DNA of 64,000 nt, taken from NCBI GenBank assembly GCA_963755025.1, contig CAVWIH010000020.1:1-64000 (forward strand), read 5' to 3'. Below the pieces are notes generated by a model. The model saw only the letters and a program-made list of their open reading frames with translations. It had not been told where the DNA came from and made no database searches. The stretch comes from an uncultured Actinomycetes bacterium. Its GTDB lineage: Bacteria; Actinomycetota; Thermoleophilia; UBA2241. This document shows, piece by piece, positions 21,881 to 25,672 of this stretch (positions within the stretch are counted from its first letter, which is position 1; each line of letters begins with the position of its first letter). A program made the translations under genes and the position numbers.

Positions 21881-22314
21881 TGGCCGGCGACAGGCACGAC
21901 GGCGGGCCCTGGGATGATGGGGCCGACGCGCGCGATGAGGGCGGCGGCCCCGGCGACGGCGGGGGAGAGGCACGACGGCGCGCCGCCGACATCGACACGG
22001 TCGTGCACCACACGCTGGTCGCCGGTGTCGCGCTCGGCCTGGCGCTGCTGCTAGTCGGCCTGGCGCTGTCGGCGGCCGGTCGTGGCGGCCTCGCGGTGCA
22101 CAGCCTCAGGGCGCCGGCCGCCTGGCGCGCGGCCCTGCACCTGCGCGCCGCCGGCTTCTACTCGCTCGGCCTGCTCGCGCTCATCCTCACCCCGTTCATT
22201 CGCGTGGCCGGCTCGATCGTCGCCTTCGCCGTGGCGCGCGACTGGCGCTTTGTGGCGGTCACGACGGCGGTGCTGGCCGTGATGGTGGCCAGCATCGTCG
22301 TGGGCGCGGCTTGA
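21880..22314 (+). CDS. DUF1634 family membrane protein
   Basis: LGLLALILTPFIRV; overlaps TauE stop (TGATG); known gene pairing. Confidence 0.8.
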   Translation: MAGDRHDGGPWDDGADARDEGGGPGDGGGEARRRAADIDTVVHHTLVAGVALGLALLLVGLALSAAGRGGLAVHSLRAPAAWRAALHLRAAGFYSLGLLALILTPFIRVAGSIVAFAVARDWRFVAVTTAVLAVMVASIVVGAA

Positions 22315-22444
22315 CCTGACGGCCCGCCCGCCCGCCCGCTCAGCGCGGTCGAGCACCGCGGCGCGCACGCACAGCAGGCGGCCCGCCCGCCGGCACGCCG
22401 CCCGGGGAGCCCGGGCCGTCGGCCTGCGATATGCTGACAGCAGC

Positions 22445-23281
22445 ATGAACCCCGTCGGACAGATCCAGCGCATCCATGGCATCGTCGGCCGCGCCGACGA
22501 GCTCTCGATGGCGCTCGCCGTGCTGCTCTGCGACCGCCATCTGCTGCTCGAGGGGCCCGTGGGCGTGGGCAAGACCACGGTCGCCCTGGCGGTGTGCGCC
22601 CACATCGGGCGCGGCGTCGTGCGCGTCGACGGCGACGACCGCTACTCCGAGAGCAAGCTCACCGGCTGGTTCGACCCGCCGCTCGTGCTGGCCAAGGGCT
22701 ACTGCGACGACACCTTCTTCGCCGGTCCGCTGGTGCAGGCCATGCGCGAGGGCTCCGTGCTGTTCGTCAACGAGCTCAACCGCATGCCCGAGGCCGTGCA
22801 GAACGTGCTGCTGCCGGCGCTCGACGAAGGCCTGCTCATCGTGCCGCGTATCGGCGAGGTGCGGGCCGCGCCGGGGTTTCAGGTGGTGGCCACGCAGAAC
22901 CCGGTCGAGTACATCGCCACCGGTCACCTCTCCGAGGCGCTGCTCGACCGCTTCGAACACGTCGGCCTCGACTACCAGAATGTCGACGAGGAGACCGAGA
23001 TCGTGCGCCGCGAGACCGGCTGCGACGACCTCGCCCTGGTCGACGCGGCGGTCGCCCTGACCCGCGCCACGCGCAGCGACCCGCGCTTTCGCAAGGGCGC
23101 CTCGGTGCGGGCCGCGATCGCCATGGTGGCGCTCGCCGTGCGCGCCGGCGGCGGCGACGACGCCCTGCGGCGCGCCGCCGGCGCGGCGCTGCCCACGCGT
23201 GTCGAGCTGCGCGACGCCACCGATTCGCCGCTGCCCGACGTGCTCGACGAACTCGTCGAGGACACCCGAAAAAAAGTCTGA
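22445..23281 (+). CDS. MoxR/CoxD-like AAA+ ATPase
   Basis: HLLLEGPVGVGKT (Walker A), LFVNELNR (Walker B variant), ATQNPVE, LSEALLDRF. Confidence 0.92.
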   Translation: MNPVGQIQRIHGIVGRADELSMALAVLLCDRHLLLEGPVGVGKTTVALAVCAHIGRGVVRVDGDDRYSESKLTGWFDPPLVLAKGYCDDTFFAGPLVQAMREGSVLFVNELNRMPEAVQNVLLPALDEGLLIVPRIGEVRAAPGFQVVATQNPVEYIATGHLSEALLDRFEHVGLDYQNVDEETEIVRRETGCDDLALVDAAVALTRATRSDPRFRKGASVRAAIAMVALAVRAGGGDDALRRAAGAALPTRVELRDATDSPLPDVLDELVEDTRKKV

Positions 23282-23307
23282 CGGCCGCCGCCGACGAGCG
23301 GCGGCCG
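23269..23307 (+). other. Candidate -1 programmed frameshift signal (A_AAA_AAA + 6 nt + 10-bp hairpin)
   Basis: A7 at 23269-23275; TGA 23279-23281; stem CGGCCGCCGC 23282-23291 pairs with GCGGCGGCCG 23298-23307. Confidence 0.7.
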
Positions 23308-24220
23308 GCCATCGTAGTGACGGCCGGCGCGCAGTCTTCGTACCTGTCGTCGCTGCGCCCCCCCGAGCCCCTCACCGACGCCGAGGCCCATATCGTGCTG
23401 GCCGAACGGCTGGGCGTGGCCCCCGACGCGGTCGACGGCTGGGCCGTGGCCACCAGGCTCACCGACTCGAGCCTCGCCCTGGGCCACCGCGAGCTCAAGG
23501 CCTACGCGCGCCGCATCGCCACCGCCGCCGTGCTGCGCCGCGCCTGGCGACTGGTGGGCCCCATCCGGCGCGCCACGCGACCGGTGCTCGCCGTCATGGA
23601 CGAGCCGTTTCACGGCGAGCTCGACGTCGACGCCACCCTCGAGAACGTGGCGGGCAAGCGCTTTCCGGAGCGCGAGGACTGGATCGTCGAGCTGCGCGAA
23701 GACCGCGAGCAGCAGCTCGTGCTCGATGATGGACGCCTCGCTGTCGATGGCCGGCGAGAACCTCGCCGTGGCGGCCGTCGCGGCCGCGGTGCTCGCCCTG
23801 AAGATGCGCCCCGAGGACCTGTCGGTCGTGGTCTTCGAAAGCGTGGCCCGCACCGTCAGCCACCTCGAGGAGCGCAACGACCCCGAAGAGATCGTGGCCC
23901 GGCTGCTGGGAGAGCCGGCGCGCGGCTACACCAACATCGAGGCCGCCCTGCGCTTGGGCGGCCGCGAGATCGCCCGCGGCCGCAACCCGAACAAGGCAGG
24001 CCTGCTGATCACCGACGGGGTGTGGACGGCCGGCGGCGACCCGGTGCCCGCCGCCGACGCCTTCCCGCGGCTGCACGTGCTGCTCACCGAGGACTACAAG
24101 ATGGACCCGGCGCTCTGCGAGCGCCTGGCCGGCATCGGCCGCGGCGAAGTCTTTCGCGTCAAGCACCACAGCGAGCTGCCCGGCAAGATGCTCGACATCG
24201 CCAACCGCGTACTGCGGTAG
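23275..24220 (+). CDS. VWA domain protein in the -1 frame of the AAA+ ORF; second frame break near 23725
   Basis: GELDVDATLE, MIDAS motif D.S.S (MDASLSM), GYTNIEAAL, LLITDG. Confidence 0.85.
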
Positions 24221-24303
24221 GCGCGGCGCCGGCCGGGCGAGCGCGGCGGGGAAGGGTAGAAGAAGCAGCACGTCAGCCACTGCCGCGACCGGAGGATGCG
24301 TTG

Positions 24304-24426
24304 ATGGACGACCCGTATGCGGAGCTGAAGGAGCACTTTGCCGGGAGCGACGACGTCACCGTCAACTCCGGCAAGGGCGCGCAAGGCATGAAGCTGGGCA
24401 AGAAGATGTTCGGATCGGCCGACTAG
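24304..24426 (+). pseudogene. Truncated small gene (TfoX-like N-terminal fragment)
   Basis: GGAGGA RBS, MDDPYAELKEHFAGSDDVTVNSGKGAQGMKLGKKMF, then runs into the 3' end of the opposing gene. Confidence 0.45.
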
Positions 24427-24938
24427 CAGTCGAACACCGACCAGCAGATCGCGTTGCGTAGCCGCTCGTCGTCGAGCACAAGGTCGCGGATCGCCTGAGG
24501 CAGCCGCTCGCGCTGCCAGCGACACTCCCGGCGACCGGCGCGATCGCCCTGGCCCTTTGGGGCGGCAGCCTGCGCCGCTTTGATGGCATAGGCGGCCGCA
24601 CCGAGCTCGTGGGCCGCCACGTGGGCGACCACCGCCGCCTGAGCGGCGGCGTAGGCCGCGTGCCGCGGCGCACCGGACAGGTCTCTGGCTGCGTCGTTGG
24701 CTCTGCCCGCCGCGGAGCGCGCCTGAGTCATGGTGACGTCGCCGCGTATCCAGGCCCGCGCCTGCGCGATCGCCTCGCGCGGTCGCGCGTCGGCGGGTCG
24801 CACCGCCTCGAACAGGGGCAGGACGTGCTCCGCGCAGTCGGCTGCCCACTCGGCCAGAAGGCGGTGATCGGCGTCTTGCAGCGTGCCGCCGCGGCGCACC
24901 GTGATGAACCTGGAATCGCGGACTTTGGGAAGGATCAC
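24423..24938 (-). CDS. Imm5-like putative immunity protein
   Basis: MILPKVRD.RFIT.RRGG.L.D.DHRLLA.WAADCAEHVL, AAQAAVVAHVAAH, ECRWQRERLP. Confidence 0.75.
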   Translation of the reverse strand: MILPKVRDSRFITVRRGGTLQDADHRLLAEWAADCAEHVLPLFEAVRPADARPREAIAQARAWIRGDVTMTQARSAAGRANDAARDLSGAPRHAAYAAAQAAVVAHVAAHELGAAAYAIKAAQAAAPKGQGDRAGRRECRWQRERLPQAIRDLVLDDERLRNAICWSVFDC

Positions 24939-24958
24939 GGCACGGATCGGGTCGTGAC

Positions 24959-25672
24959 TCAGTCCTGGACGGCGGCCTGGAGCGTAGGGATGTCGTCGCG
25001 AAGTACCTTGCCCGCGGTCCTGTGCGCGGTTGTCACTTCGGTCTGCCCACCAGACCCTGAGCTGTCTGAGTAGGCCCCGATGAACTCGGAGGGCAGCTTG
25101 ATCCCGACGCGAGTCGCGGCCGTCCGGAATGCCGCCAGCACGGCGCCGTTTGAGGGCCCCGGCGGACCGGCTGCGAGCTTCGCCATGAGCTCCCGCGTCG
25201 GACGGTTCGCTCTGATGGCGGCGAGGACCCCTTCGGCCCACAGTGTGCCTTTGCGGTTGTTCGCGAGGAGTGCCAGGTGGGCGGTCCGAAAGGCTGCGGG
25301 CGGCGTGATCGCCTCGTAGCCTTGAATGATCCTCTGCTCCTGGGGGATCGCCAGCCCCAATATCGCGCCAAAGGCATGCCAGGCTCGCCGGTCGGTAGAC
25401 AGGTCGGCGTTGCCGTAGCTCTGCTGCCACCGCGTCATGGCCCGGTTGAAGCGCTGCATGCCGTGGTAGTCGAGCTTGATGGTGGGAGCCATCGCGGCGA
25501 AGTACGCCTTGGCGGCAGCGGTGCCGGCCGGCGCCGGGGGGTTCGCCGCCGCACCGGCTGGGCTGCCCGTGGCCTTGCTCGGCGATGAGGCGCCGCAGCC
25601 GACCAACGGCATGACGGCCAGCGTCAGGGCGAGCCCTACGGCGACTCTGATGACCTTCCGTCTCGACTCCAC
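24959..25672 (-). CDS. Hypothetical lipoprotein
   Basis: GGAGG RBS, signal peptide with lipobox LVG-C, Ala/Pro linker. Confidence 0.7.
   Translation of the reverse strand: MESRRKVIRVAVGLALTLAVMPLVGCGASSPSKATGSPAGAAANPPAPAGTAAAKAYFAAMAPTIKLDYHGMQRFNRAMTRWQQSYGNADLSTDRRAWHAFGAILGLAIPQEQRIIQGYEAITPPAAFRTAHLALLANNRKGTLWAEGVLAAIRANRPTRELMAKLAAGPPGPSNGAVLAAFRTAATRVGIKLPSEFIGAYSDSSGSGGQTEVTTAHRTAGKVLRDDIPTLQAAVQD

Follow-up and report, generated by a model that had tools for sequence, protein, structure and literature searches.

How does a bacterium translate a reading frame that opens, one base out of register, at the very end of the gene before it? The question is raised by a locus in a 64,000-nucleotide stretch of contig CAVWIH010000020.1 (the window; 71.6% G+C), from an uncultured actinobacterium of the class Thermoleophilia. 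Here an open reading frame (ORF1) encoding an AAA+ ATPase of the MoxR class stops just past a run of seven adenines, and a second frame (ORF2), leading towards a protein with a VWA domain, is open in the -1 frame through the same site. On the comparisons described below, the ATPase gene, which is NorQ/CbbQ-like, very probably carries at its 3' end a programmed -1 ribosomal frameshift that would yield both a free ATPase and an ATPase-linker-VWA fusion. The same inference had been made in an original prediction drawn from the letters of the window, and it was backed by all the comparative tests that were run, which concerned the conservation of the signal, rare codons, missing start codons and natural fusions.

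ORF1 ends in CGA AAA AAA GTC TGA. The slippery heptamer in phase with ORF1, the adjacent stop and the ten-base-pair hairpin at a six-nucleotide spacer were all found where the original prediction had placed them (Table 1), and the two arms of the hairpin, CGGCCGCCGC (23282-23291) and GCGGCGGCCG (23298-23307), pair perfectly. The predicted fold of the 40 nucleotides from 23276 has an energy of -25.3 kcal/mol (z = -2.63), and one of 200 shuffled sequences was as stable. The run is A7 rather than A8: together with the hairpin it is unchanged, with 0 differences and 0 gaps, in record 9 of X2 (22900-23390) and record 19 of X3 (23229-23379), which are assembled contigs, not raw reads, from two runs of two studies; one run may be the source of the window. 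The sequencing runs found to contain the stretch were DNA runs, with no RNA run among them.

Runs of six or more adenines occur three times in the whole window. On both strands of the genome (3.37 Mb) there are 17 runs of at least seven adenines and 63 CCCAAAA sites, and at three of these 80 sites an open upstream frame is joined to a 0-frame stop within three codons and a -1 ORF of more than 250 residues. Two of the three, with upstream frames of more than 300 residues, are the window site and a paralog on contig C15, both of them ATPase-VWA junctions; the third (C32:37196, upstream frame of 138 residues) is no junction; it falls within the 5' end of a gene for an ordinary PP-loop enzyme. The signal at 23269-23307 is more than a chance occurrence. 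A search of Rfam over 22300-24500 gave nothing above the gathering score and two chance-level matches (E = 0.36 and 0.42). The original prediction had also pointed to GAGGA, just upstream, as a Shine-Dalgarno-like stimulator; the letters are present in the window, but they are not conserved among the relatives, and the motif was rejected as probably no part of the signal.

Relatives of the locus were sought in 40 related genomes with a single ORF2 query. Homologs were present in all 24 genomes of the window's family (11 genera), and this single-query search returned none from the 16 genomes of other families of the class. Among 31 distinct family loci (L001-L020 and L023-L033; 11 genera, two paralog groups), 30 have an in-phase heptamer one to three codons before the ATPase stop and ORF2 in the -1 frame; the sole exception, L016, is an in-frame fusion. 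A weak match, L034 (E = 2.2e-4), was left out of the counts because it gave no tblastn match. Throughout the window's genus (the window and 11 further species) the junction reads A7-G[TC]C-TGA and the stem is invariant, with variation in the loop and in the codons before the heptamer. The other genera and the second paralog group have C_CCA_AAA or A_AAA_AAA (L013, from another genus, also has A7), always in phase, with TGA, TAA or TAG within one to three codons and then a hairpin. In the C15 paralog (genome G000, about 75055-77015; L023/L114) the junction is C_CCA_AAA-GCC-TGA, followed by a short hairpin, and the VWA part holds a low-complexity insert of about 50 residues.

A wider scan took one genome per species from 185,579 species and returned 75 loci, 68 of which could be evaluated (seven were without the ATPase end). 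Their labels are mostly those of Thermoleophilia or Actinomycetota bins, with several of Spirochaetota, Verrucomicrobiota, Kiritimatiellia or Deltaproteobacteria. An in-phase heptamer was present in 65 of the 68 (CCCAAAA in 44, AAAAAAA in 19 and AAAAAAG in 2), and in 63 of these 65 the stop stands one codon past the heptamer, the stop being TGA in 58, TAG in 5 and TAA in 2. Two of the loci without a heptamer, L049 and L104, are true in-frame fusions, and the other, L086, is a bin with several frame breaks and is the same locus as L013. ORF2 is in the -1 phase in 63 of the 68 loci, which is the unbiased figure, as the set of 74 frameshift-type loci used for the comparisons below was chosen for a long -1 ORF. 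Across those 74, the linker between the heptamer and a conserved tryptophan takes 11 different lengths (39-61 codons) and the frame is kept.

In a phylum-wide sample, more distant homologs occurred in 19 of 300 other genomes, and 11 loci were examined. Four of the 11 distant Actinomycetota loci are in the -1 phase, three with G_GGA_AAA-GCC-TGA (L123-L125) and one with an A9 run (L120); the ATPases of these four have about 40% identity, and in L120 the -1 frame of the A9 run is closed by a TAA immediately upstream. The remaining seven have both parts in one frame; in the two that were inspected, the parts form a single unbroken ORF (L119) or are separated by a TGA (L116). The phase, the heptamer, the adjacent stop and the predicted hairpin are conserved across genera and families, and apparently across phyla. 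The original prediction had named an alignment of homologous loci as a check, and it came out in favour of the frameshift.

Codon choice at the heptamer departs from that of the surrounding genes. Outside the heptamer, the ATPase and ORF2 genes of 73 loci use AAA for 35 of 731 lysine codons and CCA for 91 of 2517 proline codons; within it, 73 of 73 loci have AAA at the A site, with CCA (50 loci) or AAA (23 loci) at the P site. Predicted structure is also concentrated downstream. When the 40 nucleotides past the heptamer were compared with control windows of the same locus, the median folding percentile was 0.06; 59% of loci did not exceed 0.1, and in the window's genus none of the 12 species exceeded 0.016. 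A contiguous stem of at least 7 base pairs starting 4-9 nucleotides past the heptamer was present at 34 of 74 junctions versus 264 of 4209 control positions. The contiguous stems have 21 distinct sequences, mostly at a six-nucleotide spacer, including GCGCCCC/GGGGCGC, GGGACGC/GCGTCCC, GCCCCC/GGGGGC, GCGGCGG/CCGCCGC and a 16-base-pair stem in L014. With its rare codons fixed, its stem invariant (in the window's genus) and its heptamer switching between lineages from one slippery type to another, the signal is conserved beyond what the encoded protein needs.

The two reading frames encode a recognizable pair of proteins. ORF1 matches Pfam AAA_5 at 75.9 bits (cut-off 22), as expected of the MoxR class. 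Its Walker A motif is GPVGVGKT, and the motif is present in 69 of 74 related loci. Its Walker B motif departs from the canonical hhhhDE in reading NE, so that the catalytic glutamate is kept and the aspartate is replaced by asparagine; NE is also found in 73 of the 74 frameshift-type loci and in 56 of 65 fused proteins (described below). The closest solved structures are the AAA domains of Midasin (E = 1.7e-38), then NorQ (E = 5.5e-19) and CbbQ. No curated CbbQ, NorQ or GvpN subfamily model matched above its cut-off (the GvpN model TIGR02640 gave 102.1 bits, below its cut-off of 266.8), and the chelatase models also stayed below their cut-offs: Pfam Mg_chelatase PF01078 (19.7 bits, cut-off 20.3) and TIGR02031 BchD-ChlD (33.2 bits, cut-off 499.55). 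The ATPase/VWA pair resembles NorQ/NorD and not the ChlI/ChlD chelatase subunits. The original prediction had described a MoxR/CoxD-type chaperone; the ATPase is of the MoxR class, and the proteins are nearer to NorQ/NorD and CbbQ than to CoxD.

ORF2 is interrupted in the window by a second break, which the original prediction had missed. The -1 frame is open through the heptamer, and its 150-residue stretch (23275-23724), which had no Pfam match, carries the linker and helical part as well as the first beta strand of the VWA domain, encoded just before 23725 and lacking from the second part. The latter matches VWA_2 at 33.3 bits (cut-off 27), with weaker matches to VWA_CoxE. It had been predicted that the -1 frame runs into the VWA/MIDAS protein; the frame is indeed open, but the VWA/MIDAS part is back in the ATPase frame in the window because of an extra G at 23725. 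In an alignment this single base was missing from 7 of 7 relatives, and it is left out in contigs of X1 (record 6, with one other difference over 23529-24300), X3 (record 20, with no other difference over 23410-23821) and X5. The base is therefore an error of the assembly, or else strain-specific, and lies outside the frameshift mechanism; the intact gene does read through in the -1 frame.

Both parts of ORF2 are contiguous in one frame of 314 residues in the 11 other species of the window's genus (L002-L012). Over 17 sequences the mean column identity of ORF2 is 55%, and the MIDAS residues D153, S155 and S157 are invariant, as in a VWA/MIDAS adaptor. A model of an intact ORF2 ortholog (mean predicted local distance difference test score, pLDDT, 83.6) has a disordered start (residues 1-29, pLDDT below 50) and, with confidence, a helical domain and a VWA fold, for which the top fold matches were the VWA domains of NorD in NorQD complexes.

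Table 1. Positions of the junction and of the two coding regions in the window
Feature	Position	Strand	Remarks
ORF1, AAA+ ATPase of the MoxR class, 278 residues, 0-frame product	22445..23281	+	Pfam AAA_5
GAGGA, Shine-Dalgarno-like stimulator proposed in the original prediction	23258..23262	+	seen in the window, not conserved
Slippery heptamer A_AAA_AAA (A7), in phase with ORF1	23269..23275	+	
ORF2, first part, -1 frame: disordered linker of about 30 residues, conserved helical domain, first VWA strand	23275..23724	+	
0-frame stop TGA, one codon past the heptamer	23279..23281	+	
Hairpin of ten G-C/C-G pairs, six-nucleotide loop CGACGA, likely frameshift stimulator	23282..23307	+	six-nucleotide spacer from the heptamer
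Extra G breaking ORF2 in this assembly	23725	+	missing in relatives and contigs
ORF2, second part, VWA domain with MIDAS motif DxSxS, in the ATPase frame in the window	23726..24220	+	Pfam VWA_2

Some genomes encode the two predicted products in the ordinary way. In genome G042, where the heptamer is absent, a free-standing ATPase gene that stops at TGA is followed by a Shine-Dalgarno-like sequence and a GTG, and next by a second copy of the ATPase fused in frame to the linker and VWA domain. Another species of the same genus (G017, locus L019/L022) is of the frameshift type and has one ATPase, and G041 has a frameshift-type locus together with a fused paralog on a separate contig. In addition, 65 database proteins of 571-815 residues combine AAA_5 with VWA. 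Of these, P0006 is artefactual, its assembly being broken, and the rest are without a frameshift-type junction. Both products predicted for the frameshift therefore exist as ordinary gene products elsewhere. It is sequence comparison that establishes the signal, with its phase and conservation, and the natural fusions. For several fused AAA_5-VWA proteins (P0039, P0011, P0034 and P0052), the longest contig matches in length a contig with a frameshift-type locus (L085, L081, L089 and L107), so that the two forms may be close neighbours in some genomes.

Other explanations of the junction are possible, among them slippage of the polymerase rather than the ribosome. If one A were added at A7 during transcription, some mRNAs would encode the fusion directly and the same protein would be produced. 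The window's genus has A7, runs of A8 or A9 occur in L017, L026, L053, L063, L095, L096 and L120, and sections of PMC3711429 link runs of more than seven adenines to transcriptional realignment, with nine As used in Thermus dnaX. However, the junctions are mostly C_CCA_AAA (44 of 65 loci), with three of G_GGA_AAA, and polymerase slippage cannot explain this majority because four As are too few; nor does it require strict codon phase or a hairpin at a six-nucleotide spacer. It is therefore unlikely as the explanation, and could contribute where the run is A7-A9. It is much harder still to regard the locus as a broken gene, i.e., a plain fusion with sequencing insertions or deletions (a true A8 or CCCAAAAA) or a decaying pseudogene. 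There is indeed a spurious base in the window, at 23725, and some related bins (such as L013/L086 and L087) have several frame breaks, but the same change of frame falls at the same heptamer in 65 of the 68 loci that could be evaluated, which stem from different samples and assemblers, and such recurrence excludes a pseudogene or artefact for practical purposes; A7 is moreover unchanged in two independent contigs, and ORF2 is well conserved (the 55% identity given above). We regard this account as very improbable. Scarcely credible is an intrinsic terminator for antisense transcription, a hairpin followed by T7 on the minus strand. A pattern scan did give one minus-strand site, 23292-23280 followed by a T run; 0.6 such sites were expected by chance in the stretch scanned, though, and no minus-strand gene ends there, both flanks being plus-strand coding. 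The full stem is also six nucleotides from the T run, and in most relatives that run is of only four bases.

The observations that weigh against a programmed frameshift begin with those that favour two ordinary genes, in which ORF2 would be initiated at its own start codon or by translational coupling at a codon overlapping the stop, and the A run and hairpin would be, for example, a site of mRNA processing or attenuation. The window has a GTG at 23317 in the -1 frame, as the original prediction had noted, and it is a possible independent start. At most junctions a CTG overlaps the TGA stop (CTGA), and L014 has GTGA; a four-nucleotide overlap of start and stop would likewise place ORF2 in the -1 phase. 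Because of the GTG in the window, the case that ORF2 has no start of its own rests on the relatives. There, the stop is overlapped by TTA in L027, by CTA in L029 and by GTA in L031; in L027, L029 and L030 the ORF2 frame contains no ATG, GTG or TTG from the preceding stop to the conserved domain; and the first start lies 57 codons into ORF2 in L011 and 47 codons in L010, inside the conserved part. Independent initiation thus fails in some lineages because no start codon is there, and it would leave the in-phase heptamer of rare codons, and the fusion beside a free ATPase in G042, unexplained. Two ordinary genes are, in our estimate, a decidedly unlikely arrangement.

The further observations on that side concern the junction itself and the material compared. 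In L044 (1380-1520) and L087 (1380-1560) the heptamer and stop are kept, and past the stop the conserved part of ORF2 follows in the 0 frame, which may reflect a linker insertion or deletion in long-read bins, or a different arrangement or decoding. No contiguous stem of at least 5 base pairs was found within 4-9 nucleotides at 24 of 74 junctions. Marked downstream structure is missing at L053, L062, L063 and L095, binned as Spirochaetota, and at L098, of Verrucomicrobiota (some of these bins carry just the label 'uncultured bacterium'); the folding percentiles of the five span 0.27-0.91. All the downstream structures are predictions. The stem sequences change between lineages with pairing kept at the same place, a compensatory pattern that arises partly by construction, because the stems were selected for pairing; the control for this is the enrichment of stems over control positions given above. 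All the sequences compared come from metagenome bins, some with insertion or deletion errors, and long frames stay open by chance in G+C-rich genomes.

If the programmed -1 ribosomal frameshift is accepted, the following sequence of events can be proposed. Most ribosomes would read CGA AAA AAA GTC TGA and release the 278-residue ATPase. A fraction would pause over A_AAA_AAA owing to the ten-base-pair hairpin six nucleotides downstream, and the two tRNAs would slip back by one base at the heptamer. Translation would then go on through the disordered linker of about 30 residues, the helical domain and the VWA/MIDAS domain to give a protein of about 590 residues. The fusion subunit would join the ATPase rings, so that a ring would carry few tethered VWA adaptors. 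We infer the slippage itself, its ribosomal nature and its efficiency, as well as the entry of fusion subunits into ATPase rings, and frameshifting may in this way set the minority of VWA-bearing subunits per ring.

The closest known parallel is the frameshifted chlD (fs-chlD) of Mg/Co chelatases, in which, according to sections of PMC3711429, PMC9227772 and PMC5009743, normal decoding gives a short AAA+ subunit and a -1 frameshift gives AAA+-linker-VWA; the sections seen of PMC3711429 also put the frameshifting of a chelatase cassette with A_AAA_AAA (7 As) at 10% in E. coli. As described in those sections, fs-chlD shares with the present locus an A-rich heptamer with downstream structure, the production of two subunits from one locus, and in-frame fusions in other genomes. 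It differs in belonging to another AAA+ family (here AAA_5, NorQ/CbbQ/Midasin-like) and in its poly-A run, whereas most members here have C_CCA_AAA. The putative recoding described here follows the logic of frameshifted chlD within another AAA+ lineage. The tau/gamma gene dnaX is likewise said, in the sections of PMC3711429 concerned with it, to combine a -1 shift at an A-rich heptamer with a downstream hairpin and so to supply one complex with two products at a fixed ratio. The shift yields the short product in dnaX and would yield the long one here; dnaX also relies on an upstream Shine-Dalgarno-like stimulator, and the GAGGA of the window is not conserved.

NorQ/NorD and CbbQ/CbbO are, like the present pair, MoxR AAA+ ATPases with a VWA adaptor, and the VWA domain of NorD is the best fold match of ORF2. 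They are encoded, however, by separate genes (the word 'frameshift' occurs 0 times in PMC13036017), and ORF2, of about 310 residues, is without a large N-terminal domain. The mechanism of NorQD fits one adaptor per ring, and by analogy the same may apply to the system described here. In midasin, an AAA ring is connected through a long linker to a C-terminal MIDAS domain within one polypeptide. Midasin/Rea1 shares AAA_5 domains with the ATPase and is its best sequence match in the Protein Data Bank (PDB), but it is eukaryotic, has about 4,700-4,900 residues and six fused AAA domains, and involves no recoding. The heptamer of copA in E. coli is of the C_CCA_AAR type. That gene resembles the present one in being a cellular gene with a -1 frameshift and a downstream stimulator, in its case a pseudoknot, as given in part of PMC6182138; it differs in belonging to an unrelated gene family and in that the shift yields a truncated chaperone domain.

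Searches of the open literature brought up no account of frameshifting in ATPase-VWA pairs of the MoxR/NorQ type, but only the chelatase papers and unrelated ones; a related cluster may stand among the 146 candidate clusters of PMC3711429. A literature search likewise found nothing on ribosomal frameshifting in Thermoleophilia. In PMC7911831 the frameshift concerns phage tail chaperones, the words chelatase, VWA and ATPase are absent from a 2025 preprint (10.1101/2025.10.02.679949), and PMC4066793 yielded no figure for C_CCA_AAA under the spellings searched.

The surroundings of the locus vary. Genes for TauE and DUF1634 are upstream neighbours in the window's genus and in two related genera alone, and neighbouring genes are not conserved past closely related genera. 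No common client emerged among the genes downstream of other loci (FakA-like, alanine dehydrogenase and others) when the longest 70 of 334 candidate ORFs were scanned, and no gene for a chelatase H or N subunit adjoins the locus in the window. After the VWA gene, 24303-24426 (+) is an ORF of 40 residues with no family or relative match, and 24423-25055 (-) is an Imm5-like immunity-protein gene common only to the two closest relatives.

MoxR ATPases with VWA partners are widespread and mostly poorly understood, not least in how one adaptor comes to be matched to a ring of six subunits. For this clade, a conserved frameshift that would make both products from one mRNA offers a testable answer. 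It is possible, at about even chances in our judgement, that the frameshift is a stoichiometry device of the whole NorQ-like MoxR clade: a fixed minority of ring subunits would carry a tethered VWA adaptor, giving a co-translationally assembled bacterial 'mini-midasin', with the signal kept across Thermoleophilia, other Actinomycetota and bins assigned to Spirochaetota and Verrucomicrobiota and, in some lineages, replaced by duplication and fusion. Were this so, it would be the second AAA+/VWA motor, after chlD, with a recoding solution, and would suggest a general constraint on loading one adaptor per hexamer. Annotation pipelines will call ORF2 truncated, split or 'frameshifted', and the X_XXA_AAA-GNN-stop-hairpin motif could be used to correct such annotation. 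With this locus, the few cellular genes known to have a -1 frameshift would also be joined by a bacterial family of many members.

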